A stretch of DNA of 64,000 bases from Candidatus Levyibacteriota bacterium. GTDB taxonomy: Bacteria > Patescibacteriota > Microgenomatia > Levybacterales > UBA12049. Shown piece by piece: positions 378 through 61,538 of the stretch (position 1 is the stretch's first letter; every line of letters begins with the position of its first letter). The stretch lies in contig CAWBPM010000004.1 of the NCBI GenBank assembly GCA_963790825.1, positions 158,987-222,986 of the forward strand, given 5' to 3'. The position numbers were made by a program, and so were the translations under genes. The notes beneath the pieces are model-generated. The model made no database searches, was not told the DNA's origin, and was given only the letters and a program-made list of their open reading frames with translations.

Positions 378-767
378 ATGTACAATCTACTTATGCCGAC
401 TCCTTCCAAGCGAACGTTTGATATTCAAGAGAGAAGTTTCAACTTCAGTGTAAATATCATACATCTAGTCTCGCTTCTTCCTAAAACAACGGCTGGATAT
501 ACTATTGGAAATCAGATTATGCGCTCTGGGACTTCAGTTGGCGCAAATATCGAAGAAGCACAAAATGCAGGAACAAGAAAAGAATTTATTCGCGGATTCA
601 CAATTGCTTTAAAGGAAGCAAGGGAAACAGAATATTGGCTACGGTTAATTTTAGAAACTAAACTAATTGACCAAATAACTGTAAGTCCACTTCTGGAAGA
701 AATTGTTGAGCTAATCAAGATTCTCACGACTATAATAAAAAAGACAAAAGAAAATACGAGCAAGTAA
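378..767 (+). CDS. four-helix-bundle protein (23S rRNA intervening-sequence-protein family)
   Basis: 129-aa ORF whose ...IIHLVSLLPKTTAGYTIGNQIMRSGTSVGANIEEAQNAGTRKEFIRGFTIALKEARETEYWLRLI is typical of the TIGR02436-like four-helix-bundle family. Confidence 0.65.
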   Translation: MYNLLMPTPSKRTFDIQERSFNFSVNIIHLVSLLPKTTAGYTIGNQIMRSGTSVGANIEEAQNAGTRKEFIRGFTIALKEARETEYWLRLILETKLIDQITVSPLLEEIVELIKILTTIIKKTKENTSK

Positions 768-867
768 TTTACAAGAAGGGTTGTATGTTGTACAATGCAT
801 ACACTTTGGAATTTACTTACGTTTTATACATAGTACATTCTAAATTAGATCATTAAAATAGTAATAT

Positions 868-1140
868 TCCGCGATAGCTCAACGGTAGAGCAGGAAACTG
901 TGTTAGCAGCTCTCAATAGAAATATTGAGATGATAAGTGGGTGAATTCAGGGAACGTCTTGAGAGGAATCGAAGGATAACCCTGAGCCAAGTCCCGCTTA
1001 GCGGGAAAGGTGCAGAGACTAGGTGATTACACCATTTAGCGCCCACCACCTAAATACTAAGCATTGGCGAAGTATAAGGTGATGAGATAGTCCAAAAAGT
1101 AATTTCAAGGTTCTAGGTTCGAATCCTAGTCGCGGAGCCA
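868..1140 (+). tRNA. tRNA-Asn(GUU) gene interrupted by a group I intron in the anticodon loop (exons 868-901 and 1100-1140)
   Basis: Acceptor stem TCCGCGA/TCGCGGA, D-arm GCTC-AACGGTA-GAGC, T-arm CTAGG-TTCGAAT-CCTAG, discriminator G and encoded CCA. Joined exons give anticodon loop CUGUUAA, identical to the canonical tRNA-Asn loop. Confidence 0.7.
902..1099 (+). ncRNA. group I self-splicing intron (small IC3-like, Azoarcus-tRNA-Ile-intron-like)
   Basis: P1 formed by exon CUGU with internal guide GCAG (U.G at splice site). Conserved core elements GCGGGAAA (P), GUGCAGAGACUAG (R/P7 5'), CACCCACCUAAA and GAGAUAGUCC (S/P7 3'). Terminal G at 1099. GAGCCAAG motif as in the Azoarcus intron. Confidence 0.65.
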
Positions 1141-2586
1141 AAGTTGATTATCGTTGTAATTTAGTATTGTATCAAAGGGTTTTAGCCCGTCATATCGGAC
1201 TATTTTACCTTCTACCCTAAGGTTCTGAAGTGTGAGCTTGATTAACTGCCTTCTTTCTTCAACTTCCGAACTTTCAAACAACTCATAAGCTCTATTAACC
1301 AATTCCAACAGATATTTAGCCGTGATGTAGTAGTTGTCTTCTGCTTCCTGTAATATGCTTAATCGGGTATCAACATCTGCTAATTGTTCACGGAACGACT
1401 GATAGAACTTGTCATACTCATTGTCAGTAATACGCCCGTCTAATCTATCAAGGTAAAGTTTTTCCAGTCTTTTGCTATAAGTTTCGTGTTCTTCTGTCAG
1501 TTTGTTGAATTGTTTATCTCTAAACTCTATTTTACTTTCGTGAGTTGTCCGTAATGCTTCAACGATTTGCTCTACTACCCATTCAGGCACCTGCAACCGC
1601 TTAAAAATGCTTCCTAGTTGTTTGGTAATATCCTCTTCTCTCAACCATTCAGCCCCATGCTTGCCGTTATATTGGGTGCAATGGTAATAAATGTGCCCTT
1701 TGTGCTTCTCAGGCGTTACAGACAGCCCGCAATGACCACATCGTAGTAATCCTCGGTAAATATAAGGTAAACCAGCAAACTTGAAGTGTTTTTTATTAAA
1801 ACTTTCTTTTACCTTCTGCACTTGGTCAAATAAATTTTGGGTAATAATAGGCTGATACTTATGCGGATAGAATTTCTTATTCCACTTCATTATTCCATAA
1901 TAAAATGTATCCTTGAGGATTTTGTCAGTCCAGCCATGCGACCATTCTACGCCATACTCTTCTTTTAGCTTTTTGCGTAATAAATCCATTGAAAAACTAC
2001 CCGTTGCATACCATTCGTAGGCTTTTTGAACAATCCGAGAAGCAAACTCATCAACTACAATTTCTGTTTTGTCTTTACTTATTGAAACACGCTTATATCC
2101 GAAGGAAGGTCTGCTTGGGTATGTTCCCATCCTAAGCATTTGTTCTTGTGCTCGTTTTACATTATCGCTAATTGCATCAGAGTAGTATTTAGCAAGCCCA
2201 AGACTAATACTAAAATTAAACTTCTCTACTGCGGATAGTTGGCTATTTATTACTTGCCCGTCCGATACGAAATGGAGTTCTACCTCATCTTTTAATGCCT
2301 TATCGTAAAGCGTAGAAACCCTTTTATCAAAAATGTTACGGGATAATCTATCTACTTTGTCAAAGCAAACGGCTATTTTTTCTTTTTGCTCAAGAACAAA
2401 GTCAAGGATACTGTCAAAATCGCTACGCTGTGTCTTATATGCACTTTCATCAAAGCTAAATTCCTTGATAATCTCAAAGCCTTTATTTTGGCTGTATTTT
2501 TTGAGCCGTGCAATCTGAGCAGGTAAGGAATTGTTGGCTTCCTTTTGTTCTTCTGTTGATACTCGTGCAATTATAATCGCTTTCAT
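1126..2586 (-). CDS. large serine recombinase (resolvase/invertase N-domain + recombinase + zinc-ribbon domains)
   Basis: MKAIIIARVSTEEQ... catalytic Ser motif, central recombinase domain, and a CGHCG...C zinc ribbon. The stop codon lies inside the tRNA-Asn 3' end. The six-frame ORF extends to 2610, but MKAII is the likely start. Confidence 0.85.
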   Translation of the reverse strand: MKAIIIARVSTEEQKEANNSLPAQIARLKKYSQNKGFEIIKEFSFDESAYKTQRSDFDSILDFVLEQKEKIAVCFDKVDRLSRNIFDKRVSTLYDKALKDEVELHFVSDGQVINSQLSAVEKFNFSISLGLAKYYSDAISDNVKRAQEQMLRMGTYPSRPSFGYKRVSISKDKTEIVVDEFASRIVQKAYEWYATGSFSMDLLRKKLKEEYGVEWSHGWTDKILKDTFYYGIMKWNKKFYPHKYQPIITQNLFDQVQKVKESFNKKHFKFAGLPYIYRGLLRCGHCGLSVTPEKHKGHIYYHCTQYNGKHGAEWLREEDITKQLGSIFKRLQVPEWVVEQIVEALRTTHESKIEFRDKQFNKLTEEHETYSKRLEKLYLDRLDGRITDNEYDKFYQSFREQLADVDTRLSILQEAEDNYYITAKYLLELVNRAYELFESSEVEERRQLIKLTLQNLRVEGKIVRYDGLKPFDTILNYNDNQLWLRD

Positions 2587-2587
2587 A

Positions 2588-3028
2588 TTATTGACATTGC
2601 ATAAATTCATTTCGTGTTCCTTGGTTATAGGTAAAACAAGTGGTAGGTTTCGAAGGCTGAGTAATGTATTTTATTACTGGCGTTGGGGTAGGTTGTGGAT
2701 TATCAATTTCATATTGTTGATAAGCTTCAAATGCGTTTGAACATTTATCTACTGCATTCCAGCTCATTGAAGAAAAGTCAATTATTTTAGATTTACCTTC
2801 TTTATATGCTTCAGCTGAGGCTATAGATTTAAGGTAATCTTTAACATCGTTTCCTGTGCATTTATAATTTTCTAAAGTATTATATTTTGAAAGCCATTCT
2901 TGAGTAGTTTTTCCTTGATATGTAAGTTTCGGCTGAAGGTATAGATACATAACTACTAAGCCAACAGCAAAACCTATTGCCAATGACCCAAAAAGACTAT
3001 GTTTTATATTTTTTAACTTAATTTTCAT
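2588..3028 (-). CDS. membrane-anchored hypothetical protein (paralogue of the next gene)
   Basis: N-terminal TM helix, then a YQGKTTQEWLSKYN domain also present in the 3025-3387 ORF. Confidence 0.45.
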   Translation of the reverse strand: MKIKLKNIKHSLFGSLAIGFAVGLVVMYLYLQPKLTYQGKTTQEWLSKYNTLENYKCTGNDVKDYLKSIASAEAYKEGKSKIIDFSSMSWNAVDKCSNAFEAYQQYEIDNPQPTPTPVIKYITQPSKPTTCFTYNQGTRNEFMQCQ

Positions 3029-7152: not shown

Positions 7153-8760
7153 TTAGGCATAAGCAGGCTGTATTTGGAAGGTTTCAAATACCGTCTTTAT
7201 ATTCTGCAAGCTAAACCCAAACTCTATTTGTCTGTTCTTGAATATATCTACTAGGGGGAGCTGAGGCTGTCTTAATATAATTTTGTGGGTATTTTCGAGA
7301 ACTTTGAAGATGGGAGTCGGTACAACTTTATAGATTTTTCTATTCTTTACTTCAAATCGCTCAAAGAAGAACCTCATATAGTGCCGTTTTAGGAAAGTCG
7401 GAGCGTCAACATAGGTTTGATGAATGTTCCTGCTGAAAGCTAAAACCTCCTCAATTAAGTCAACGTCCATCTTCCCTTTATTATCTAATTCGATAATTTG
7501 TGTGTCCAAATTAAGAATCTGCTGATAAAGTTTATCGTGGTGTCGCTTATATACATCCCGATCTATGTCTCCGTTAAGCAAAGCGTCCTCAAGCTTATCT
7601 CTTTTTGATTCAAGAGCAGTTTTTTGGTTCAATATGCCTCGTTGGGTAGATGAGGCTGTTTTTCTTGTTTCTTCCAATACGGATCGTGTCTTTTGTACTA
7701 CTGCATCTATGAAATCTTGGCTAAATTCCATTTTCTTAAATTCTTGCTCAACTAAACTTTCCATTTGCTCCATTTGAACGTAGGGAGCGGGACATCCGTT
7801 ACGATCCCTTTTCTGGCAGTGATAGTATCCTATCTTACCGCCCCGATTTTTCAATTTATCAGCATCCTTGTGCCATTCGGCTGTGTATCGCTGTCCACAT
7901 TCACCGCATATTAGAAAACCTCTGAGAAGAAAGTCGTGCACACGATGACGTAAAAGGAAATTTCTGTGTTTTGCCAAAACGTATTGGCAAGTGTCAAAAA
8001 GTTCTTTTGTAATGATTGGTTTTTGTTTACCCATTTTACTTACCCCATGCCATCGACAAAGTCCATAATAGAACGGATTATTCAAGATCGTGTTAATAAC
8101 AGAATGGCCTAGTGTTGTGCCATTTCTAGAAAGAATATTTTTTTCTGCTAACCAGTCCTGTAATTCCAGTATACTGTAATTGCCTGTGGCGTAAAGTTCA
8201 AATAGTTCTTTAATTATCGGTGATGTATCAGGATCAGGTTTACACTTTTTCTTTTCATCTTTACTTCCTACGCTCATATATCCAGGGTATCGTGAATACG
8301 GCTGCCAGCCTTCTTCAAATTTTTGTTGCAATGCGTCTTTAGTTCTGTCGCTGTTGACCTCGCTTTCCCATTGGGCTACCGAAGCAAAGAGATTTGGAAT
8401 TAGACTATTACCCTCCATGAGATCACCCTCGCTAACTGACAGTAGCTTGATACCTTTTACTTTAAAATCGTTGTACAACCGAGAAAAATCTGATACGTTG
8501 CGACAAAAACGATCAATTTTATAGACCACGACCGCATCTACTGGATGATCTTCTAGTTCCTTGAGTAGTTCTTGTAGTGCAGGTCTTTTTGCGGCAGATC
8601 TTCCAGATCGTCCACTATCATCAAATAGTCTCTTTACTTGATAGTCGTGCATTTTAGCATAATCCCGACACTGTCTGATTTGATTGTCAGGGGAGTAACC
8701 TTTATTTTTCTGTTCTTGCGTACTAACACGAATATATATGTAACAGGTAAAGCTTTTCAT
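7153..8760 (-). CDS. large serine recombinase (second copy, distinct sequence)
   Basis: YIYIRVSTQEQ catalytic motif, ...SGRSGRSAAKRPALQELL..., DAVVVYKIDRFCRN, C-terminal CGECG zinc ribbon. Confidence 0.85.
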   Translation of the reverse strand: MKSFTCYIYIRVSTQEQKNKGYSPDNQIRQCRDYAKMHDYQVKRLFDDSGRSGRSAAKRPALQELLKELEDHPVDAVVVYKIDRFCRNVSDFSRLYNDFKVKGIKLLSVSEGDLMEGNSLIPNLFASVAQWESEVNSDRTKDALQQKFEEGWQPYSRYPGYMSVGSKDEKKKCKPDPDTSPIIKELFELYATGNYSILELQDWLAEKNILSRNGTTLGHSVINTILNNPFYYGLCRWHGVSKMGKQKPIITKELFDTCQYVLAKHRNFLLRHRVHDFLLRGFLICGECGQRYTAEWHKDADKLKNRGGKIGYYHCQKRDRNGCPAPYVQMEQMESLVEQEFKKMEFSQDFIDAVVQKTRSVLEETRKTASSTQRGILNQKTALESKRDKLEDALLNGDIDRDVYKRHHDKLYQQILNLDTQIIELDNKGKMDVDLIEEVLAFSRNIHQTYVDAPTFLKRHYMRFFFERFEVKNRKIYKVVPTPIFKVLENTHKIILRQPQLPLVDIFKNRQIEFGFSLQNIKTVFETFQIQPAYA

Positions 8761-9109: not shown

Positions 9110-9649
9110 CTACCAATTGATTGCGTGACTATGGAAAATTCTGTCTAATATCGGATCATTGTCTACTACGCTAAGGCTGATAACCTCAATTCCATTTCGC
9201 TCAAAATCATCTTTTAACAGAAAATGCGTTATAACATTTCTTGTTAATCTATCCCAGCTTGTACATAAGATTCCTTGAGCCTCTTTCTTTTCAAGTCGAT
9301 GTAACATTTGCCAAAAGATTGGTCTTTTGTTACTAATACCCGAACCATATTCACTGATTACATCAACAATTTTAAAACCTGACTTTTCTTCTTCTACCAG
9401 ATCGTCTTCGTTAATAGGGTAAACTATAAGTTGTAAATCGTCTGGGTGAAGGGACGGTATGCCAAACTCTTTGCGGATCTCCTTTGCAAAGAAATCCATA
9501 ATTCCTGACTTAACATAAAGATCAAAATAGTCTTTAATAACTTTTTCTCTCCCTTGTTTGATAGGAGTTTTAGTAAGCGCTTGGTTCCATACGGATGCAA
9601 TTCTCCAAGATGAGTCATTCGGCTTAGAAGTATTCTTATCATTAAGCAT
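9110..9649 (-). CDS. resolvase-N-domain-like protein with substituted catalytic residues (likely inactive)
   Basis: Residues ~70-175 align with the serine-recombinase catalytic domain (YGSGISNKRPIFWQMLHRL ; GILCTSWDRLTRNV). The R-V-S motif position reads P-I-N. No HTH/recombinase domain. Confidence 0.5.
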   Translation of the reverse strand: MLNDKNTSKPNDSSWRIASVWNQALTKTPIKQGREKVIKDYFDLYVKSGIMDFFAKEIRKEFGIPSLHPDDLQLIVYPINEDDLVEEEKSGFKIVDVISEYGSGISNKRPIFWQMLHRLEKKEAQGILCTSWDRLTRNVITHFLLKDDFERNGIEVISLSVVDNDPILDRIFHSHAINW

Positions 9650-10462: not shown

Positions 10463-10875
10463 CAGAAGTTAAAATGATTGTATTTGTTGCAATCGTTAAT
10501 ATAGTTTGATCCGAGTATAATGGTTATACTTCTTGACGTACATAGTCCTCCTGCTTCCTATTTTGCCCTTTTGGCGCATTTTATTTAGTAACAGGATGAA
10601 ATAGTAATCTTTGGCGTTTCAGTCTGGCGAAAGCTATGTTACGCAGTTTGGGTCTCCAGCAGTTATAAAACAAGTTACACAACTTGCACCAGCTACAAAT
10701 AACCTACATTTCTATTCACATGAGCTTGTGCTCGCAAAGATATGAGCCTACACAAAATGTAATTATTTTCACTAACATATATATATTTTTGAGTTCAAAA
10801 GGTAGTAGTGTAAGTTGTGCAAGCTATATAATATTGCTTATGGATAGACACACTCCTGCACAAAGAAGTTTTAAT

Positions 10876-11259
10876 ATGTCTCAGGTAAAGTCAAAGGATA
10901 CTAAACCTGAACTGTTAATGTTTGCATTACTTGAGGAATCTGGAATTAAGTTTGAAAAACATTATTCTGTTCCTGGCAAACCTGATATAGCGTTTCCCGA
11001 ATATAGAGTAGCGGTTTTTATTGATGGGGAATTTTGGCATGGTAAGGATTTTAAGCAAATTAAAGATACATTACAGCCCTTTTGGGTTAAAAAAATAGGT
11101 GATAACATAAAAAGAGACAGAAGAACAATGGATAAGCTGAGAGTTGAAGGGTGGCATATTTTGCATTTTTGGGATAAACAAGTTATTCGGAATCCTCGAA
11201 AATCGCTCAAACGTATTAGGCAATTTCTTGAGCGTGTACAAATTTCTGGTGGAAAGTAG
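10876..11259 (+). CDS. vsr: very-short-patch repair endonuclease Vsr
   Basis: SKDTKPE, VPGKPDIAFP, FIDGEFWHG, KIGDNIKRDRR, GWHILHFWD motifs. The six-frame ORF starts at 10684, but the Vsr domain begins at MSQVKSKDTKPE. Confidence 0.8.
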   Translation: MSQVKSKDTKPELLMFALLEESGIKFEKHYSVPGKPDIAFPEYRVAVFIDGEFWHGKDFKQIKDTLQPFWVKKIGDNIKRDRRTMDKLRVEGWHILHFWDKQVIRNPRKSLKRIRQFLERVQISGGK

Positions 11260-12346
11260 GAAGCAATTTTTCTGTTGTTTCCAGCTCACGCATTGAGTAC
11301 AAGAGTGCTTCAGCGGCTCTTTTAGCAAGTAACGGAGGTACAGCATTTCCGATCTGTTTGGCAATTTCTCCGAAGTTGCCTATGAACTTAAAAGAATCAG
11401 GAAATGTTTGGAGTCGGGCGGCTTCTCTTAAAGAAATTGCTCTGTCTTGTTCAGGATGCCCAAATCTTCCTTTTGAAATCATTCCGCAACCGCCTGTCAT
11501 TGTTGGTGAAGGATAATCCCATCTCATTCTTCCGTAAACATCTTTGTGTCCCTTAGTTGTTTTATGACACTCCAGGACTAATTCGTCTGGCCATGATGTT
11601 CTATCTCCGCCGTCGTGTGGTGTATAGATGATTCTTTTAAGATTGATTTCCGCCAGACTTGCTGAGACCTGCATTGGATCATTCTCATGTTTTTCGCCTG
11701 CCTTTATTGGAGGCAGGTCTTTAATTGCTTCTCGTACAGTAGCCCACGCGGGTAAGTTATCCGAAACTGAAGGGTCAGCATTAGTTTTCGGGGGGAATGA
11801 GAGTCTGATACTCGGATTGTTTGTACCCATAAGAACCAATCTTTTTCTTCTTTGGGGAACGCCATAATCAGCGGTATTTACTACATCGTAAATCGTTTGG
11901 TAACCGAGCTCACTAAGTCTCTGTAAAATCTGCACAAATAGAGGCTTTCCGATTCCTTTAGCAAGCCCTGGAACATTTTCTAATACAAAAGCGAGCGGCT
12001 TTATTTCCTCAACTATACGCAAAAATTCGTATATAAGTTTGTTTCGCGGATCAGTAAGTCGTTGAGAATTTCTTCTTGCAGTGGAAAACCCCTGACAAGG
12101 AGGACATGCAATAAGAACTACTTCTTTACCGTTTTTGAAACCTCCAGCTTTCAGAAGTTCTGTGCCTGATAGATAGGAAATGTCAGACGGAAATACTGTA
12201 CAACCTGGAAAGTTTACCTTGAATGATTCCGAGGCATTGCTATCAATATCAACGGCAACTTTAATGGAGTAGCCTGCCTGTTCGAATCCCAACGCTGAGC
12301 CTCCACAGCCTGAAAAAAGGTCAATTACGCCCATATTCCCTTTCAT
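11216..12346 (-). CDS. dcm: DNA (cytosine-5)-methyltransferase
   Basis: Motif I DLFSGCGG, motif IV PCQGFS, motif VI ENVPGL, C-terminal QIGNAVPP; 3' end convergent and overlapping with vsr. Confidence 0.85.
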   Translation of the reverse strand: MKGNMGVIDLFSGCGGSALGFEQAGYSIKVAVDIDSNASESFKVNFPGCTVFPSDISYLSGTELLKAGGFKNGKEVVLIACPPCQGFSTARRNSQRLTDPRNKLIYEFLRIVEEIKPLAFVLENVPGLAKGIGKPLFVQILQRLSELGYQTIYDVVNTADYGVPQRRKRLVLMGTNNPSIRLSFPPKTNADPSVSDNLPAWATVREAIKDLPPIKAGEKHENDPMQVSASLAEINLKRIIYTPHDGGDRTSWPDELVLECHKTTKGHKDVYGRMRWDYPSPTMTGGCGMISKGRFGHPEQDRAISLREAARLQTFPDSFKFIGNFGEIAKQIGNAVPPLLAKRAAEALLYSMRELETTEKLLPTFHQKFVHAQEIA

Positions 12347-16696: not shown

Positions 16697-18319
16697 GTGA
16701 GAGTAAAGAGCGAAAGCTTTACGCTTACTGGTTCAACTTATATAAATAATAGTATGAGAATAAAGAAAATACATCTAAAAAATTTCAAAAGATTTGATAA
16801 TCTAACAATAGATTTAGGTAATGACCCTAAAAAAATCATAGCTCTTGTTGGTCCAAATGGTTGTGGCAAAAGCTCCGTATTTGATGCTTTTGAAGAAAAA
16901 TTAAAAGATTATAAGGGGGCTAATGTCACTGAGCTTGCCTCTTTCTTTTCTAAATTATGGCACTCCAACGATCCTGCTCTCAAATCAGAAACTTATAATA
17001 AAGGAGAATCAATAAAAATACATAGAGAAGATGATAGTGAGAATTTTGATAAAAAAAGCTTTACTATTAGATCTGCATATAGGTTTACGCCTAAATTATC
17101 TGTTGATAGCGTTAGAACAAAACCTAGTATTATTGAAAATAAAGAAAGACCAGGTAGTAGTATTGCTATAGATTCTCAGTTGAGTGATAACTACGAAAGA
17201 TTACTGGGTAAACTAATCAATGAATTTTTTAATGGTACAAAAACAGGACAAGAAACTCGTGAAGAAATTCTAGGGAAGATTAACGCTATTTTAGAGAATA
17301 TATTGGATATAAAAATATCTAATTTAGGGGATGTTACCGCTGGTAAAGGGCAGCTATACTTTCTGAAAGAAAGCTCTAAGGATTTTCCATTTGAGAATTT
17401 GTCTTCTGGGGAGAAAGAAGTCGTGGATATCATTGTTGACTTGATTATTAAATCTTCAGACTATAACAACACTGTTTATTGCATAGATGAACCAGAGTTA
17501 CACCTAAATACTGCAATACAACGAAAACTACTTATTGAAGTCGAAAAACTTATACCCGACAACTGTCAATTATGGGTTGCTACTCATAGCATAGGTTTCT
17601 TAAGAGCCCTTCAAACTGACTTGAGGGATAAAACACAAGTTTTGGATTTCTCCGAGAAAGATTATTTTAACGGGGCAAAAACAATCATTCCAATCAATCA
17701 AACACGAAGAAATTGGCAACGTATCTTTAAAACTGCCCTAGAAGACTTAACTGGACTTATTGCACCCGAAAAAATTATTTATTGTGAAGGCAGAGCCGAT
17801 CCAACTTCTCAGGGAAACGAACAAGGATTAGATGCAACAGTTTATAATGAAATTTTTGAAGAAACTAACCCAGAAACATTATTTATATCAGCTGGTGGAG
17901 GGATACCACATATAAACCATTCTGCTATTGCTCTCCAAATTCTGTCAAAAGCATTCCAAGGAGTAGAGCTCTTTTTATTAAAAGATAAAGATGAAAAAAC
18001 CGATGCTGAGAGAACTACATTTATTAGCTCTACACCAGAAAATAAGATGTTAACAAGGCGAGAAATAGAGAACTATTTATTTGATATTGAAATTTTGAAA
18101 AACTACAGTAGTAAGAATGGTAGAACACTAGATGAGCAAAAATACTCGCAGATTGTTATAGATATTAAACAACAAGATTTGAAGCTAGGTCAAATACTAC
18201 AGAGCTTACAGCATTTGTGTGGAGCAAGTGGAAGTATAAGTGATTTCAAAATTGAACTTGCGAAATATATTATTCCTGAAACTTCAGTCTATTCCGAACT
18301 GAAGGGATGTATTTTTTAG
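16697..18319 (+). CDS. OLD-family / PARIS-like ABC-ATPase fused to a short Toprim (DUF4435-like) nuclease domain
   Basis: Walker A GPNGCGKSS, Walker B VYCIDEPELHL, H-loop WVATHS. C-terminal IIYCEGRADP (Toprim Glu) and LLKDKDE (DxD), ending REIENYLFD. Confidence 0.6.
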   Translation: MRVKSESFTLTGSTYINNSMRIKKIHLKNFKRFDNLTIDLGNDPKKIIALVGPNGCGKSSVFDAFEEKLKDYKGANVTELASFFSKLWHSNDPALKSETYNKGESIKIHREDDSENFDKKSFTIRSAYRFTPKLSVDSVRTKPSIIENKERPGSSIAIDSQLSDNYERLLGKLINEFFNGTKTGQETREEILGKINAILENILDIKISNLGDVTAGKGQLYFLKESSKDFPFENLSSGEKEVVDIIVDLIIKSSDYNNTVYCIDEPELHLNTAIQRKLLIEVEKLIPDNCQLWVATHSIGFLRALQTDLRDKTQVLDFSEKDYFNGAKTIIPINQTRRNWQRIFKTALEDLTGLIAPEKIIYCEGRADPTSQGNEQGLDATVYNEIFEETNPETLFISAGGGIPHINHSAIALQILSKAFQGVELFLLKDKDEKTDAERTTFISSTPENKMLTRREIENYLFDIEILKNYSSKNGRTLDEQKYSQIVIDIKQQDLKLGQILQSLQHLCGASGSISDFKIELAKYIIPETSVYSELKGCIF

Positions 18320-19628: not shown

Positions 19629-20657
19629 ATGGCAAGTGATTTTAAACGAGTCAGATACATACGACCAAAACTCTCCAAATTGAGCTATCATATCGAGATG
19701 AAGGCTCTTGAGGATGCAATGGCTTGTGAGTTATCAGATGTTGCTGCTTTTAGGATGCATGTGATCACCCATTACTACAAATATGGACTGCGTGCCACTC
19801 TTGATGCTTTTAATCTGAAACAAAGTACTTTCTATGACTGGAAGTGGGCATATGAGAGAAACAATCGGCGTGTCATTGCACTTGTTCCAAAATCAACACA
19901 ACCAAAAACAACAAGAGTAATGAAAACTGATCCACAGATAATTGAATTCATTAAGCAGATGCGAGTGGGACATGGGAACATAGGAAAAGAAATGATCAAA
20001 CCATTTGTGGATGCTTATTGCAAAAAACTTGGTATCAATACCATAGGACCAACTACTATTGGAAAGATCATCAAAAGGAAGAACTTTACCTTTGAGAAGA
20101 AGGTTTACCCACAAAAACAGCAAAACAGGTTCAAAAAGCTAAGAGTCAGAAAGTCTCCAAAGGTGACAAGTCCCGGATTTATCCAAATGGATTCCATAGT
20201 GGTATATATCAACTATGAGAAACATTTGTTTATGAGTGTGATTGATATTTTTACTAAATATGCACATGTCGTATATGTGGATACAATTTCTTCAGCAAAT
20301 GCAAAAAGAGTTTTCCAAGAGTTTATAGAGCTTAATCCGACATCCATTCATACAGTGCAAACAGACAATGGCTCTGAATTTCTCAAATCTTTCCATGCAT
20401 ATTTAGAAGAGCAACAGATTAAGCACCAATTCATTTATCCCAGAATGCCAAAGATCAATTCCTACATCGAGAGGTTTAACAGAACTATTCAAGAAGAGTT
20501 TATTCTCAGAAATGATGAGATTTATTACGATATTCCAGCTATGAACAGGAAACTCACCAAATATCTTTTCTGGTACAATTACCAAAGACCTCACAGGTCA
20601 CTTCATTACATGTCGCCTATGTCATTTATTGAAACCAATCTTCCGAAATGTGGGTGA
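19629..20657 (+). CDS. IS481-family-like DDE transposase (HTH + rve integrase core)
   Basis: Single 342-aa ORF with ...VQTDNGSEF...YNYQRPHRSL integrase-core motifs. Confidence 0.75.
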   Translation: MASDFKRVRYIRPKLSKLSYHIEMKALEDAMACELSDVAAFRMHVITHYYKYGLRATLDAFNLKQSTFYDWKWAYERNNRRVIALVPKSTQPKTTRVMKTDPQIIEFIKQMRVGHGNIGKEMIKPFVDAYCKKLGINTIGPTTIGKIIKRKNFTFEKKVYPQKQQNRFKKLRVRKSPKVTSPGFIQMDSIVVYINYEKHLFMSVIDIFTKYAHVVYVDTISSANAKRVFQEFIELNPTSIHTVQTDNGSEFLKSFHAYLEEQQIKHQFIYPRMPKINSYIERFNRTIQEEFILRNDEIYYDIPAMNRKLTKYLFWYNYQRPHRSLHYMSPMSFIETNLPKCG

Positions 20658-21418: not shown

Positions 21419-22237
21419 TTAATTCTTACTTCTATCTAATCTCCAAGTTGATGAGACAAATCTTGGAATCCCTAGAATTCCTCTCTTTTTATAGGTTAAC
21501 TCTCGGAAAGTATGCATATCTTCCATTCTAAAACTAAAAATAACCTCTCTGAAATTTCTTGATAATGCCAGTTCTAAAGCTAATGGAGCAGAGGAAATTC
21601 TATTGAAATTAACCCTCGGATCAGTAAGTATTTCCTCGTCCAAACAAGTGGGCGTTTCTGAGTAAATTCTATGCTTGCCTTTTCCCTCTGTTTCGGCTGT
21701 TTCGCCCGGCTTTACTTTTGACAGTAAATCTAACGCCATGTCTTTCCCAAATAATATTTGCTCCCCCTGCGATAGCGGTAGATCGCGCCCTGAACTGCCA
21801 GGACCCTGAGATAAGGCTGATAAAGTAATTTTACAGGGCTCTTCGGGGTCAGCCAAATTACCGAAATCCAGTAAAGGCGAAAAGGGTTCATTGATACGCA
21901 GAGAAATATTATTATGACGCATAAAATACAACTCACGTTCACCTACCGTAAGATGTGGATGAACAACATGCTCCATTCGTCTTTGTGCACTATAAATAAT
22001 TGAAAGTGCTCTCCACCCATATTTTGAAATTATTCTAATTGGTTCCTGCCTTAAGGCATTTTCTTCCGGGGTAGGTCTAAAGGGTCCATCTGTAGCCATA
22101 AATATACTCCTTTTTGGAACAGCAGCGGAATAATACTCTCTGGGAAACAAATTGTCAAATAGGTGTGGAACTGCAAGACATGGGTTACGCTCAGATTTTA
22201 GCTTTTTCTCTAAATCTTTCATACGGTGTTTGTCCAT
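21419..22237 (-). CDS. hypothetical protein, GC-richer than surroundings, overlapping transposase 3' end
   Basis: 272-aa ORF at roughly 48% GC in a ~35% GC context; no recognised motif. Confidence 0.35.
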   Translation of the reverse strand: MDKHRMKDLEKKLKSERNPCLAVPHLFDNLFPREYYSAAVPKRSIFMATDGPFRPTPEENALRQEPIRIISKYGWRALSIIYSAQRRMEHVVHPHLTVGERELYFMRHNNISLRINEPFSPLLDFGNLADPEEPCKITLSALSQGPGSSGRDLPLSQGEQILFGKDMALDLLSKVKPGETAETEGKGKHRIYSETPTCLDEEILTDPRVNFNRISSAPLALELALSRNFREVIFSFRMEDMHTFRELTYKKRGILGIPRFVSSTWRLDRSKN

Positions 22238-23108
22238 TTAATGCCGAATGTGGTCTTTCAAAGTTGTAGAAGTTTTCCCACTCCTGCAGTTTTTCATTAA
22301 ATAGCTTGGTATCATCAATAACTACTCCTTCTAACATACGATAGAACTCCTCTTCGTCAATTCTGTGAGATCGTTCAACTTTTCCATTAAGCCTTGGTGT
22401 TCTTGGTCTAATATACACATGATTAATTCCTTTATCAAGGATGTGCCAATGGAATTGGCCTTGAAACTCTGATCCGTTATCTGTCTGAATTACTTCGGTA
22501 TGAAACGGTAGTCGAGAAAGAACATAATCAACAAACTGTATTGCAGTTAACTGGTTGTTTCTCTCATATATTTTTAACACCCTGAGTCTTGTACAATCAT
22601 CAATTGCAGTGAATTGATAATATCTTTGCCTTGTATCTTTTATTCGCTCAAGAAACTTTACATCCACTTGTATGCTGTGGCCCGGTTGAGGCTTTTCATA
22701 CCGTTTCCACCGCTCTGTGTGCTTTTTGTATCGTTGATTTGCTGGGAGTAAATTCATATTTAATCTTTTAAGCATTTTCCAAATACTTGATCTGTTAATG
22801 ACAATTCCATGATATCGTTCTAAGTACATCTTTATGCGTAGTGGACCAAAATGATAGGTTTGTCTTAAGTACACAACTTTAGCAACAATTTCAACTGGCG
22901 TTGCCATAGGGCTATTGTGTGGGCGTCTTGATTTATCTCGTAATCCTTCTTCACCCTCTTCTTGGTAACGTTTAAGCCACTCATAATACGCTGTCCTACC
23001 GATTCCGTAATACCTACAGGTTTTTGCTACATTGTGTGTAACTTCTTCCATGTGTCGTAGAACTCCCAGTCGCCATTTTTGCAATCGTTTTATTTCTTGT
23101 TCAGACAT
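22191..23108 (-). CDS. IS481-family DDE transposase
   Basis: N-terminal HTH (TCRYYGIGRTAYYEWLKRY), rve core ...IQTDNGSEFQGQ...YNFERPHSAL. Confidence 0.8.
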   Translation of the reverse strand: MSEQEIKRLQKWRLGVLRHMEEVTHNVAKTCRYYGIGRTAYYEWLKRYQEEGEEGLRDKSRRPHNSPMATPVEIVAKVVYLRQTYHFGPLRIKMYLERYHGIVINRSSIWKMLKRLNMNLLPANQRYKKHTERWKRYEKPQPGHSIQVDVKFLERIKDTRQRYYQFTAIDDCTRLRVLKIYERNNQLTAIQFVDYVLSRLPFHTEVIQTDNGSEFQGQFHWHILDKGINHVYIRPRTPRLNGKVERSHRIDEEEFYRMLEGVVIDDTKLFNEKLQEWENFYNFERPHSALNGQTPYERFREKAKI

Positions 23109-59006: not shown

Positions 59007-61538
59007 TTAAAGCAGGTACTTCTTTAAAAAGATATTTTTGACTTCTTCAACGATAAATAGATAAATAGCGGTAAGCAGTATGAGAATAAGCAAATAGAAC
59101 GGAGGAAGAGGGACAAATCCCAGTGTTTTATTTATCGGCGAATAAGGAAGAAGGATGCCGATCTCAGTCATGATAAGTGCCGTTGTGGTTAACCAAAAAC
59201 TGGGACTACTTAGAAAAAACGGTGTCCGGGCGGTTCGAATTACAAAAACTACTAAAATTTCAGTAGCAATCGATTCGATAAACCAACCTGTTTGAAACAT
59301 TGCTCCTCGGGCGTGAAAAATAAAGAGCATTATGGCAAAGGTTAAAAAATCAAAGAGCGAACTAATCGGCCCAAAAAAAAGCATATAACTTTTAATAAAA
59401 TCAAGATTCCAATGTCTTGGCCGAACGAGTGATTCATGATCAACATTATCCGTCGGAATACTAAGCTGTGAAACATCATAGAGCCCGTTCGTGAGAAGAA
59501 TCTGTACGGGGGTCATTGGAAGAAATGATAAGAAGAAAGATGCTCCTGATGCTGAGAACATATTGCCAAAGTTTGAGCTGGTTGCCATGAGAATATATTT
59601 AATTGTGTTATTAAACGTTTTTCTTCCTTCAATAATTCCATCTGCGATAACATCAAGGCTTTTTCGAAGCAGCACTACCGCAGCTGCATCTTTCGCTACG
59701 TCAACAGCACTATTAACAGATATACCGACGTCTGCGCTATGGATAGACGGCAAATCATTAATCCCGTCTCCAACATATCCAACAGTGTGCCCTGCTTTCT
59801 TAAGCGTTTCTATGATGCGTAATTTTTGTTCCGGAGTAACTCTGGCAAAAATATCTATACCGGTGACTTTTGCAAGAAATTCTTCGCCCGACAGCGCTTC
59901 CAGATCTCGTCCTAACAGTACGTGTTTTACCGGTATACCGATTTCCCGGCAAATTTTCCGGGTAATAATCTCATTATCTCCTGTAATAATTTTTGTTTGT
60001 ACATTAAGCATGTGAAGTTTTCCGAGAGCTTCCTTGGCGCTTTTTTTAGGAATATCCAAGAAGGTGATATAACCCGCGAAAGTTAATTGAGTTGCATCTT
60101 CCCACGAATAATCTTTTTTTTCCGGAATTTTTTTAGTTGCAACGGCAACCATGCGAAGACCATCATTATTTAGGGCGGCTAATTTTTCCCGCAGCGCTTT
60201 TTTATTTGGGATATTATTACACATGGCAATAATGCTATCCGGAGCGCCTTTTACCACGATTGTTTTATGTTTGTCCTCTTCAAGAACAGAATACATAGCC
60301 TTTCTGTTATAGTCAAATGGTTCCTCGGCAATTTTTTGATATCTGCTTCCCATATTTATTTTATTCTTCAGGGCATAATCCCAGATAGCAGCATCAATTG
60401 CATTTCCGAGCACCTTGTGATGTACGATTGCACTATTGCAAAGCATTGCCAGGTGAAGAATCTCAGGGCTTTTTTCTCCATACATATCAACATAATCTAT
60501 AACATCAATTTTCCCTTCGGTAAGTGTTCCTGTTTTATCCGTACATAATACGTCCATATTGCCCAGGTTTTCGATAGAAATAAGCTGCTTTACGACAATA
60601 TGTTTTTTTGCCAACTTTCCTGCGCCGTGTGCCAGACTTACCGTTACAATGACCGGCAGCAACTCGGGGGTAAGTCCGACTGCAATAGCCAAAGAAAACA
60701 GGAGCGAGTCCAGGAGGCTGTGACCTAAGAGCGCGTTGACAACAAATATAACAATTGTCATAAGAATAATAACCTTGACAATAAGATCGCCAAAGAGGGA
60801 AAGTCCTTTTTGAAAATCAGTTACCGGACGGATGAACGAGGTGATCTCAGCGATTTTACCGAACTGCGTATTTTTGCCAATTCTAATGACAATACCTCTG
60901 CCTGACCCGCTTTCGATGCTCGTACCCATATAGCCGACATTGTCAATATTTGCTCCGTTTTCCGGAAGTTTTTGTATGGCTTGACTTGTTTTAAACACGG
61001 TTTTTGCTTCGCCTGTCAAAACAGACTGATTTACTTCCAGATCTTGTGTTTCAATAAGACGAATATCTGCCGGAATAATGCTTCCTTGGGAGACAAGAAC
61101 AATATCCCCAATAGTCAAATGAGAAACAGGGATTTCCAATTTACCGCCATTTCTCTCAACCAGAGCACTTGGCGAAATCTTTTTTAAAAGACTATCGACT
61201 GTTCGAACGGCACTATATTCATTCCAAAGTCCCAACAAAACGCTTGCAATAATAATGCCGAAAATATAATAAGAGCTGACATGTTGTCCTAAGAGGTAAG
61301 AAATACATGTTGCGATTGCCAAGATAATAATAAGCGGGTTACTGGTGAATTGACGAAGAAAAATACGGAAGAAATTAATATTTTGCTTACGTATGCTATT
61401 TAAACCAAACTGTTTTTGTCTTTTGAAAACTTCTGCTTCTGATAATCCCTGATTTGAAGAACCAAGCTGGGATACGACTTCTTGAGGCGAGAACGCTGCG
61501 TAATCGGTATCAGGACGCAAAGCAGACAGAGTAGACAT
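59007..61538 (-). CDS. cation-transporting P-type ATPase (P2/P3-type; Ca2+/Mg2+-like)
   Basis: Cation_ATPase_N, TGES-like, CTDKTGTLT, VGDGINDLPS, 10 TM. Confidence 0.85.
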   Translation of the reverse strand: MSTLSALRPDTDYAAFSPQEVVSQLGSSNQGLSEAEVFKRQKQFGLNSIRKQNINFFRIFLRQFTSNPLIIILAIATCISYLLGQHVSSYYIFGIIIASVLLGLWNEYSAVRTVDSLLKKISPSALVERNGGKLEIPVSHLTIGDIVLVSQGSIIPADIRLIETQDLEVNQSVLTGEAKTVFKTSQAIQKLPENGANIDNVGYMGTSIESGSGRGIVIRIGKNTQFGKIAEITSFIRPVTDFQKGLSLFGDLIVKVIILMTIVIFVVNALLGHSLLDSLLFSLAIAVGLTPELLPVIVTVSLAHGAGKLAKKHIVVKQLISIENLGNMDVLCTDKTGTLTEGKIDVIDYVDMYGEKSPEILHLAMLCNSAIVHHKVLGNAIDAAIWDYALKNKINMGSRYQKIAEEPFDYNRKAMYSVLEEDKHKTIVVKGAPDSIIAMCNNIPNKKALREKLAALNNDGLRMVAVATKKIPEKKDYSWEDATQLTFAGYITFLDIPKKSAKEALGKLHMLNVQTKIITGDNEIITRKICREIGIPVKHVLLGRDLEALSGEEFLAKVTGIDIFARVTPEQKLRIIETLKKAGHTVGYVGDGINDLPSIHSADVGISVNSAVDVAKDAAAVVLLRKSLDVIADGIIEGRKTFNNTIKYILMATSSNFGNMFSASGASFFLSFLPMTPVQILLTNGLYDVSQLSIPTDNVDHESLVRPRHWNLDFIKSYMLFFGPISSLFDFLTFAIMLFIFHARGAMFQTGWFIESIATEILVVFVIRTARTPFFLSSPSFWLTTTALIMTEIGILLPYSPINKTLGFVPLPPFYLLILILLTAIYLFIVEEVKNIFLKKYLL

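Follow-up and report, generated by a model that had tools for sequence, protein, structure and literature searches.

Can a tRNA gene split by a group I intron that lacks P9, the helix that normally positions the 3′ splice site, still give rise to a tRNA? The question is posed by the 64-kb stretch of bacterial chromosome analysed here (the window), whose only tRNA gene, at 868-1140 on the forward strand, is a tRNA-Asn(GUU) interrupted after anticodon nucleotide 35, between U35 and U36, by a 198-nt group I intron (902-1099). Judging from the sequence of this locus and of its relatives, we are reasonably confident that the insert is a functional group I intron that is spliced from the tRNA-Asn(GUU) precursor. 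The gene is laid out as follows.

868-901, forward strand: tRNA-Asn 5′ exon, with acceptor strand, D arm, 5′ anticodon stem and C32 U33 G34 U35; called by ARAGORN, its acceptor and anticodon stems covarying across the 25 sequences introduced below.
902-1099, forward strand: group I intron with an IC3-like core and no open reading frame (ORF); matched by RF00028 and covered by family alignment A2.
1100-1140, forward strand: tRNA-Asn 3′ exon, with U36 A37 A38, 3′ anticodon stem, variable loop, T arm, acceptor strand, G1137 and CCA (1138-1140); called by ARAGORN, its T and acceptor stems covarying.
768-796, forward strand: promoter-like site TTTACA-17-TACAAT, its distance to the downstream tRNA being about 70 nt; 10 of 12 positions match in a consensus scan, which is weak evidence.

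Run without its intron search, ARAGORN reports zero tRNAs anywhere in the 64 kb. Standard tRNA finders thus report no tRNA-Asn here, so that genomes of this lineage seem to be without an essential tRNA. Switching the intron search on, or submitting the spliced sequence, brings up a tRNA-Asn(GTT) of 75 nt whose intron follows nucleotide 35, and removal of the intron leaves a clean cloverleaf with anticodon GUU. Only one pair of splice sites, CUGU/...G/UAAU (slashes marking the cuts), restores the 7-nt loop CUGUUAA, and it also yields the U.G pair of P1, the terminal G and P10. The intron begins with GUUAGCAG and its last base is G1099. Rfam model RF00028 (Intron_gpI; gathering score 50 bits) aligns to 895-1109 of the forward strand with 85.5 bits (E = 2.3e-20 for the whole window); no other Rfam family is found in the 64-kb window, and a permissive rescan of 800-1200 yields no further credible match. 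The initial annotation of this DNA had proposed a tRNA-Asn(GUU) with loop CUGUUAA, discriminator G and encoded CCA, split at 35/36 by a group I intron at 902-1099, with a cloverleaf once that segment is removed and a P1 of CUGU and GCAG closed by a U.G splice pair. The host, the cloverleaf and the class are borne out by ARAGORN, the sequence and the covariance model, the intron bounds are exact to the base, and P1 and the terminal G are both seen, P1 being recovered by the fold described next and invariant in all 25 sequences.

The minimum free energy (MFE) fold of 868-1140 reaches -93.4 kcal/mol (z = -5.45, with 0 of 200 shuffles as good), and, although unbiased, it yields the acceptor, D and T stems together with P1, P2, P3, P4, P5, P6a, P7.1 and P8. 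In E. coli, asparaginyl-tRNA synthetase (AsnRS) recognizes G34, U35, U36 and G73, all of which are encoded here, G73 as G1137.

Relatives were found in metagenomes with a pattern taken from the window's own 3′ end (GAGAUAGUCC, 2-10 bases, GUAA, then the T-loop). The 50 loci retrieved comprise 31 full-length relatives, 7 truncated ones and 12 chance matches in unrelated DNA, which we discarded. All 31 full-length relatives (24 distinct sequences) are tRNA-Asn(GUU) genes with the intron at the identical site; the introns are 174-261 nt long, are 64%-85% identical to that of the window, start with GUUAGCAGC and carry the same core blocks. A hairpin GGUGA(U/G)UACACC between P7 and P3 is a family trait. 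Three family members score 62-71 bits with RF00028, and scores of relatives span 58-94 bits. These sequences sit unannotated in public data. We aligned the window with the 24 distinct relatives using MAFFT (alignment A2, 25 sequences) and tested a structure of 74 pairs made up of the four tRNA stems and P1, P10, P2, P3, P4, P5, P6, P6a, P7, P7.1 and P8, which lie in the window as follows.

898-909, forward strand: P1, exon CUGU (898-901) with guide GCAG (906-909), U901.G906 being the splice-site wobble; 4 pairs, invariant in 25/25.
902-905, forward strand: P10 element GUUA, complementary to the start of the 3′ exon, UAAU (1100-1103); 3 pairs, invariant in 25/25.
911-930, forward strand: P2, 8 bp, capped by the GAAA tetraloop L2 (919-922); compensatory changes in 8/8 pairs, GAAA in 25/25.
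937-943, forward strand: P3 5′ strand GUGGGUG, partner 1040-1046; paired in 100% of cells, compensatory changes in 2/7 pairs.
948-984, forward strand: P4 (948-952/980-984) around P5 (956-960/973-977) and its loop; covariation.
985-1011, forward strand: J4/6 and P6 (GCC 986-988/GGU 1009-1011) around P6a (992-996/1002-1006); P6 invariant, P6a compensatory in 5/5 pairs.
1012-1020, forward strand: J6/7 (GCA) and P7 5′ strand GAGACU with bulged A1016, partner 1089-1093; invariant in 25/25 and also present in canonical IC3 introns.
1022-1033, forward strand: P7.1, an extra hairpin GGUG-AUUA-CACC between P7 and P3; in all 25 members.
1040-1046, forward strand: P3 3′ strand CGCCCAC; as for the 5′ strand.
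1047-1081, forward strand: P8, in which CCUAAA...UAAGG resembles the 11-nt GAAA-tetraloop receptor and is where L2 presumably docks; helix base covaries in L142.
1082-1093, forward strand: J8/7 (AUGAGAU) and P7 3′ strand AGUCC; invariant save one J8/7 position.
1094-1099, forward strand: A-rich tail AAAAA and terminal G1099, in place of P9.0/P9; each of the 25 members has such a tail, 5-9 nt long with a final G.

Standard pairs occupy 97.2% of the cells of this structure; column shuffles reach 84.8%, and sliding the partners by 1-3 columns leaves about 41%. Two-sided (compensatory) changes occur in 38 of the 74 pairs, and on each of the five measures used the real alignment exceeds all 500 shuffles. 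The covariation is dense in P2, P5 (4 of 5 pairs), P6a and the acceptor, anticodon and T stems, and is also found in P3 (2 pairs), P4 (1 pair, G-C to A-U), the base of P8 and P7.1. RNAalifold, supplied with no structure, returns the same helices; only the P7 pseudoknot is missing, pseudoknots being beyond what the program can represent. Compensatory change in both the tRNA stems and the intron helices argues for purifying selection on the whole precursor. The invariance of P1, P10, P6 and P7 fits their catalytic roles; in most relatives UAAC replaces UAAU at the start of the 3′ exon, giving a P10 with four Watson-Crick pairs.

The stem of P7.1 reads GGUG/CACC in 24 members and CUGG/CCAG in one, L142 (loci are numbered with the prefix L), and GAGC/GCUC in L014 and L097, two tRNA-Asn introns from outside the family; in some members of the family a second hairpin accompanies it. 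A pairing of the P7.1 GGUG/CACC with the CACC/GGUG of P8 was considered and rejected: L142 alters each hairpin independently, which argues for two local hairpins. In P8, the canonical receptor CCUAAG...UAUGG is found in L127, L136, L137 and L146, and the window variant resembles that of L144 and L160.

Two hairpin modules recur in alignment A2 (window 956-977 and 1053-1075), occupying different peripheral helices from one member to another. The module CCUGAG...UCGAAGG lies in P5 of the window, L146, L151 and L160, P6 of L139 and P8 of L127, L151 and L171, and a second, GGCUUGCC...GCCGAAGC, lies in P6 of L140, L143, L160 and L171. They look as if they were small structured inserts moving between loops.

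The alignment bears directly on the possibility that the locus is a decaying relic, that is, a tRNA-Asn pseudogene with a splice-dead intron, complemented by a working intronless copy elsewhere. Our survey covers 64 kb of the genome, the locus adjoins a mobile island, and the window carries both a mismatch atop the anticodon stem (G27.A43) and a non-canonical P8 receptor. However, the 27:43 pair is non-Watson-Crick in 23 of the 25 members, so it is a trait of the lineage and not damage, and L144 and L160 have the same receptor variant. Wherever the other 24 sequences are invariant or nearly so, the window copy also agrees with them, with zero departures, and so looks functional, and the compensatory changes described above speak for selection rather than decay. 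We regard a relic as very improbable.

To which group I subgroup does the intron belong? The initial annotation had called it Azoarcus-type (IC3). By its core sequence signatures, on which this assignment rests since the single covariance model used, RF00028, is not subgroup-specific, the catalytic core is IC3-like. The intron has the IC3 signatures GAGCCAAG and AGGUG(C/U)AGAGACU, no P5abc and an anticodon-loop location, and it carries the sequence of another IC3 trait, a GNRA tetraloop in L2 with a receptor in P8. The segment GAGCCAAG...AGGUGCAGAGACU is common to the window and to introns of tRNA-Leu(UAA), tRNA-Arg(CCU) and CAU-tRNAs retrieved by the same pattern, and both P7 (G(A)GACU/AGUCC) and J8/7 (AUGAGAU) match in sequence their counterparts in canonical tRNA introns. 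The Azoarcus periphery is a different matter: there is no P9.0/P9, and hence no L9 tetraloop to dock on a receptor in P5, only AAAAAG following P7, and P7.1 is additional. The proposed subgroup therefore holds for the core but not for the periphery. The other motifs quoted in the annotation are present but CACCCACCUAAA, which we take to be the Azoarcus sequence, is absent; the window reads CGCCCACCACCUAAA at 1040-1054.

The Azoarcus intron nevertheless provides a close point of reference. Both introns are small and ORF-less, lie in a bacterial tRNA anticodon loop and have a P3-P8 core without P5abc (PMC13168695; 10.1101/037895); they share GAGCCAAG, AAGGUG(U/C)AGAGACUA and a GAAA L2 with a receptor in P8. 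They differ in that the Azoarcus intron follows nucleotide 36 and the window intron nucleotide 35, and in that Azoarcus has only a few nucleotides between P7 and P3, where the window has the 12-nt P7.1; canonical IC3 introns that we inspected have about 4-7 nt there and no P7.1. The Azoarcus fold uses two tetraloop-receptor clamps, TL2-TR8 and TL9-TR5 (bioRxiv 10.1101/037895). The L2 GAAA and P8 receptor motif of the window correspond, as far as sequence can tell, to the first of these. The second, the L9-P5 contact, cannot form in the window intron, which has no P9; P5, unconstrained here, has no receptor, differs freely among members and shrinks to a stub in L139 and L152, consistent with the missing clamp.

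Introns of tRNA-Leu(UAA) resemble the window intron in their core signatures and in the exon anticodon stem that flanks P1/P10. Their J8/7 and P7 read GAGAGAGUCC or GAGAUAGUCC, the Anabaena intron included. They are unlike it in being inserted after U34, in their length (about 220-330 nt in our sample) and in having P9. In the classification of Michel and Westhof, subgroup IA introns such as phage T4 td carry helices P7.1/P7.2 between P7 and the P3 3′ strand, the position of the window's P7.1. The likeness is one of position: subgroup IA has different core sequences and other peripheral elements, whereas the signatures of the window are those of IC3.

We propose that splicing would proceed as follows. 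The precursor would be transcribed, possibly from the promoter-like site at 768-796, and the intron would fold into a two-domain core (P4-P5-P6 and P3-P7-P8), with the GAAA of L2 docked on the receptor-like motif in P8 and P7.1 placed at the P7/P3 junction. Exon CUGU would pair with the guide GCAG, and a free guanosine held in P7 would attack after U901. G1099 would then reach the guanosine pocket on a 5-nt A-rich single-stranded tether, not from P9.0/P9, while P10 (UAAU with GUUA) would align the 3′ exon. Attack by U901 after G1099 would ligate the exons into a 75-nt tRNA with the loop CUGUUAA and release the intron.

The unusual 3′ end also suggests a variant of this scheme, in which cellular splicing takes place but not autonomously: after the loss of P9/P9.0 and of the L9-P5 clamp, the intron would need a protein chaperone or cofactor, or unusually high Mg2+, for its folding or for placing the terminal G. 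All 25 members lack P9, while Azoarcus uses two clamps, and P5 is under no constraint and has almost disappeared from L139 and L152. Proteins such as CYT-18, moreover, are known to be needed by many organellar group I introns (Hausner 2014, PMC3984707). Set against this, the core is fully conserved and the putative L2-P8 clamp is kept; P7.1, conserved in all members, could compensate structurally; and neither in the window nor in the relatives does a candidate cofactor gene accompany the tRNA. We consider such dependence unlikely and allot it a minor share of the confidence that we place in a spliced intron.

Several points weigh against a functional, spliced intron. Splicing itself is something that we infer, as are its autocatalytic nature, the L2-P8 contact and any part played by P7.1; the gene structure, the group I class, the covarying helices and the family's conservation at this site are what the sequences show. 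P9/P9.0 is missing although it is present in every characterized IC3 intron and in the distant tRNA-Asn introns, which makes autonomous use of the 3′ splice site a presumption. P1, P10, P6 and P7 never vary, so the covariation says nothing for or against them; P7.1 is supported by few independent stem variants (L142 and L014/L097); and the window's P8 receptor is non-canonical, with UAAGG in place of UAUGG. The metagenome pattern selected short 3′ tails, so the frequency of the P9-less form among tRNA-Asn introns is not inferable from it. Finally, tRNA genes were surveyed in 64 kb of the genome, and a second, intronless tRNA-Asn may exist elsewhere.

How, then, does the P9-less family relate to other tRNA introns? 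An exact 39-mer of the intron core has no match in species-representative genomes; the core pattern GAGCCAAG-N(8-38)-AGGUGYAGAGACU finds at least 120 loci in them. ARAGORN's intron mode misplaces some introns, mislabelling several CAU-tRNA hosts as Gln(CTG), His or Phe (L046, for example, as Gln(CTG)), so we re-derived the hosts with group I splice rules (5′ exon ending in U, intron ending in G, spliced product called as a tRNA); some loci stay ambiguous after this check, and host counts are accordingly approximate. Among the matches listed, the hosts are mostly tRNA-Leu(UAA), with the intron after nucleotide 34; tRNA-Arg(CCU) and CAU-tRNAs have it after nucleotide 36, and other CAU-tRNAs after 33. 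Six of the listed matches are tRNA-Asn(GUU) genes with the intron after nucleotide 35: L014 from an Eubacteriales metagenome-assembled genome (MAG), L097 from an Elusimicrobia MAG, L062 and L076 from the candidate phyla radiation (CPR), and L027 and L068 from Pacearchaeota MAGs (DPANN).

These six share the host tRNA and insertion point of the window intron, and five of them pass the RF00028 threshold, L068 with its large insertion falling below it. L014, L027, L068 and L097 also have the GCAG guide and are the nearest neighbours outside the family by core distance, and L014 and L097 carry hairpins between P7 and P3. Unlike the window intron, all six retain a P9 hairpin (about 27 nt) ahead of their terminal G, and L068 has an insertion of about 230 nt with a 70-codon ORF in its P1 loop. 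That ORF looks HNH-like by eye (CxxC...HH); it has no Pfam match, and we rejected the assignment. Core distances to the window intron, taken over conserved columns, are 0.12-0.26 for P9-less tRNA-Asn introns, 0.29-0.32 for L014, L097 and L027, and at least 0.36 for introns of other tRNAs. From this order the P9-less form looks like a derived branch of a tRNA-Asn-specific intron lineage.

The archaeal locus L027 (1-2400; JAGVXA010000008, Candidatus Pacearchaeota) holds a tRNA-Asn(GUU) with an IC3-like intron that scores 83.1 bits with Rfam. The tRNA lies just downstream of genes for aIF-2 beta (351-770, above the curated cut-off) and the universal archaeal KH-domain protein (1336-1830), and these markers make the contig look genuinely archaeal. 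On this evidence L027 would be a group I intron in an archaeal tRNA gene. A 2018 survey of archaea left two IC3 hits unresolved (PMC6125680).

The close relatives at the same tRNA position in CPR and in seemingly genuine DPANN contigs suggest that the intron lineage may have crossed domains. Together with the family's structure this leads to a bolder proposal, which we advance tentatively and regard as possible rather than probable when its parts are taken jointly: P9-less tRNA-Asn introns could be a natural class of minimal self-splicing group I introns smaller than that of Azoarcus, with a tethered terminal G and with P7.1 partly replacing P9, in a lineage that may have crossed between CPR and DPANN. 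To our knowledge the Azoarcus intron, at 205 nt, is the smallest described. If the proposal is true, the archaeal member would be the first group I intron in an archaeal tRNA.

Other loci extend the range of hosts. L173 (8240-8531 of IMGVR_UViG_3300022723_000207, a 153-kb viral contig) is a tRNA-Lys(UUU) in which a related group I intron (84.8 bits), with the same GGUGAUUACACC hairpin and with P9, follows nucleotide 35; the phage-like contig carries an array of at least 10 tRNA genes. According to a 2014 review, phage group I introns have been seen in protein-coding genes only. Further IC3-type hosts supported by the splice rules (L002-L121) are Thr(GGU) in L035 and L050, Arg(UCU) in L055 and Lys in L040 and L009. 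The CAU-tRNA intron of L046, from a Woeseiaceae MAG, has a long P7-P3 hairpin closely like that of L142, which indicates that the P7.1-bearing subtype is not confined to tRNA-Asn.

The bacterial tRNA hosts named in the searchable literature are few, namely Leu(UAA), fMet, Ile(CAU) and Arg(CCU) (PMC3984707; PMC2686568; PMC8450103), and a 2017 survey adds Arg, Gly and Lys hosts in cyanobacteria from inserts of 22-49 nt (PMC5733544), which are too short for group I ribozymes. Our searches of the open-access literature brought up no report of a bacterial tRNA-Asn as host of a group I intron, a negative that is not proof, and nothing relevant on natural P9-less group I introns or on the smallest group I intron. 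This agrees with the earlier remark that no tRNA-Asn host could be cited, though public sequence data contain many relatives. Elements of this kind are well known, whereas the tRNA-Asn host, the 35/36 insertion and the P9-less, P7.1-bearing architecture appear to be undescribed. The locus adds tRNA-Asn(GUU) and a new insertion point to the few known tRNA hosts, and it belongs to a whole conserved family that does without the helix normally positioning the 3′ splice site. Such a family offers a natural test of the minimal RNA needed for a group I ribozyme, and possibly a compact scaffold for engineering.

What kind of genome carries the locus, and is the tRNA itself ancestral there? The window is bacterial chromosome with a purC-purN-purD-purL-purQ-purM cluster, an MgtA-type ATPase and transporters; at 90% identity its proteins form singleton clusters. 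Among named homologues, PurD is closest to proteins of Candidatus Blackburnbacteria (79%) and Candidatus Microgenomates (78%), with other Patescibacteria next, and on PurD the host is placed as a CPR/Patescibacteria bacterium of the Microgenomates group. The upstream flank of L135/L170 is 74% identical in nucleotides to that of the window over 856 nt, with the intron in place, and keeps at the same position (70% amino-acid identity) the gene that directly precedes the tRNA.

378-767, forward strand: gene of the '23S rRNA intervening sequence protein' family (PF05635), directly upstream of the tRNA.

The resemblance of the introns combined with these conserved flanks suggests that the intron has been inherited vertically with its locus in the host lineage. 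A blastn search with 850-1160 gave no match in phage or plasmid collections.

The 3′ end of the tRNA overlaps a gene on the opposite strand.

1126-2610, reverse strand: large serine recombinase, 494 aa, convergent with the tRNA and ending inside it; Pfam Resolvase, Recombinase and Zn_ribbon_recom.

Its reading frame closes with W-L-R-D-stop, encoded by the complement of the last 15 bases of the tRNA (1126-1140), which span the end of the T stem, the acceptor 3′ strand, the discriminator and CCA. Antisense ORFs end at the same tRNA offset in L135 and L155, and the stop codon of some recombinase genes that terminate in the tRNA is the complement of the T-stem CTA. Recombinase homologues adjoin the tRNA-Asn 3′ end in L157 (71% identical to that of the window), L171, L143 and L124/L148. 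Exact-match look-ups with the recombinase and with the upstream protein gave no record. This recurrence suggests that the tRNA-Asn 3′ end is a repeated attachment site of serine-recombinase elements in CPR genomes, in line with the earlier description of the tRNA as an integration-adjacent site, and the repeated pairing marks tRNA-Asn as an integration hot spot there.

The same observations raise the possibility that the 3′ end of the tRNA is not ancestral but was supplied or rebuilt by an integrated serine-recombinase element, making the gene an attachment-site hybrid; this reading concerns the locus and is compatible with a functional intron. The recombinase gene that terminates within the tRNA, the antisense ORFs at the same offset and the recombinases beside the tRNA in the relatives just named speak for such a hybrid, and downstream of the tRNA the window turns to mobile and defence genes, with a GC content of 0.34 at 2-10 kb against about 0.40. 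Yet a search of the window yielded neither a repeat of the tRNA 3′ end (no further copy at up to 3 mismatches) nor a second attachment site; the similarity of the sole 12-mer repeat (1168 and 23637) does not extend further, and one such repeat is no more than expected by chance. Serine recombinases leave a 2-bp crossover and no long repeats, so the missing repeat is weak evidence either way. Nor was the right-hand boundary located by synteny, tblastx of the relatives' downstream flanks not revealing the island's right edge. We treat the hybrid as a real possibility that falls short of being probable.

The genes beyond the tRNA probably form a genomic or defence island, at about 1100-23100 of the window (about 22 kb past the tRNA), with approximate boundaries. 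Besides the recombinase at the tRNA it contains the following.

7153-8760: second large serine recombinase.
9110-9649: resolvase fragment (small resolvase).
10684-11259: Vsr, beside a C5 cytosine methylase (11216-12346).
16697-18319: PtuA-like ATPase.
19629-20657 and 22191-23108: two IS481-type transposases.

In L146, a homologue of the window's MgtA-type ATPase (59007-61538) lies 7-8.4 kb downstream of the tRNA-Asn, compared with 58 kb in the window; either insertions have interrupted a former synteny, of which this may be a trace, or the arrangement is a coincidence. Copied pieces of the locus also occur upstream of the tRNA in two relatives: L139 has a stray copy of the exon-intron junction, UGUGUUAGCAG, about 130 nt upstream, and L152 a partial duplicate of the tRNA 5′ end (UCCGCGAUAG). 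Both may be scars of recombination at the locus.

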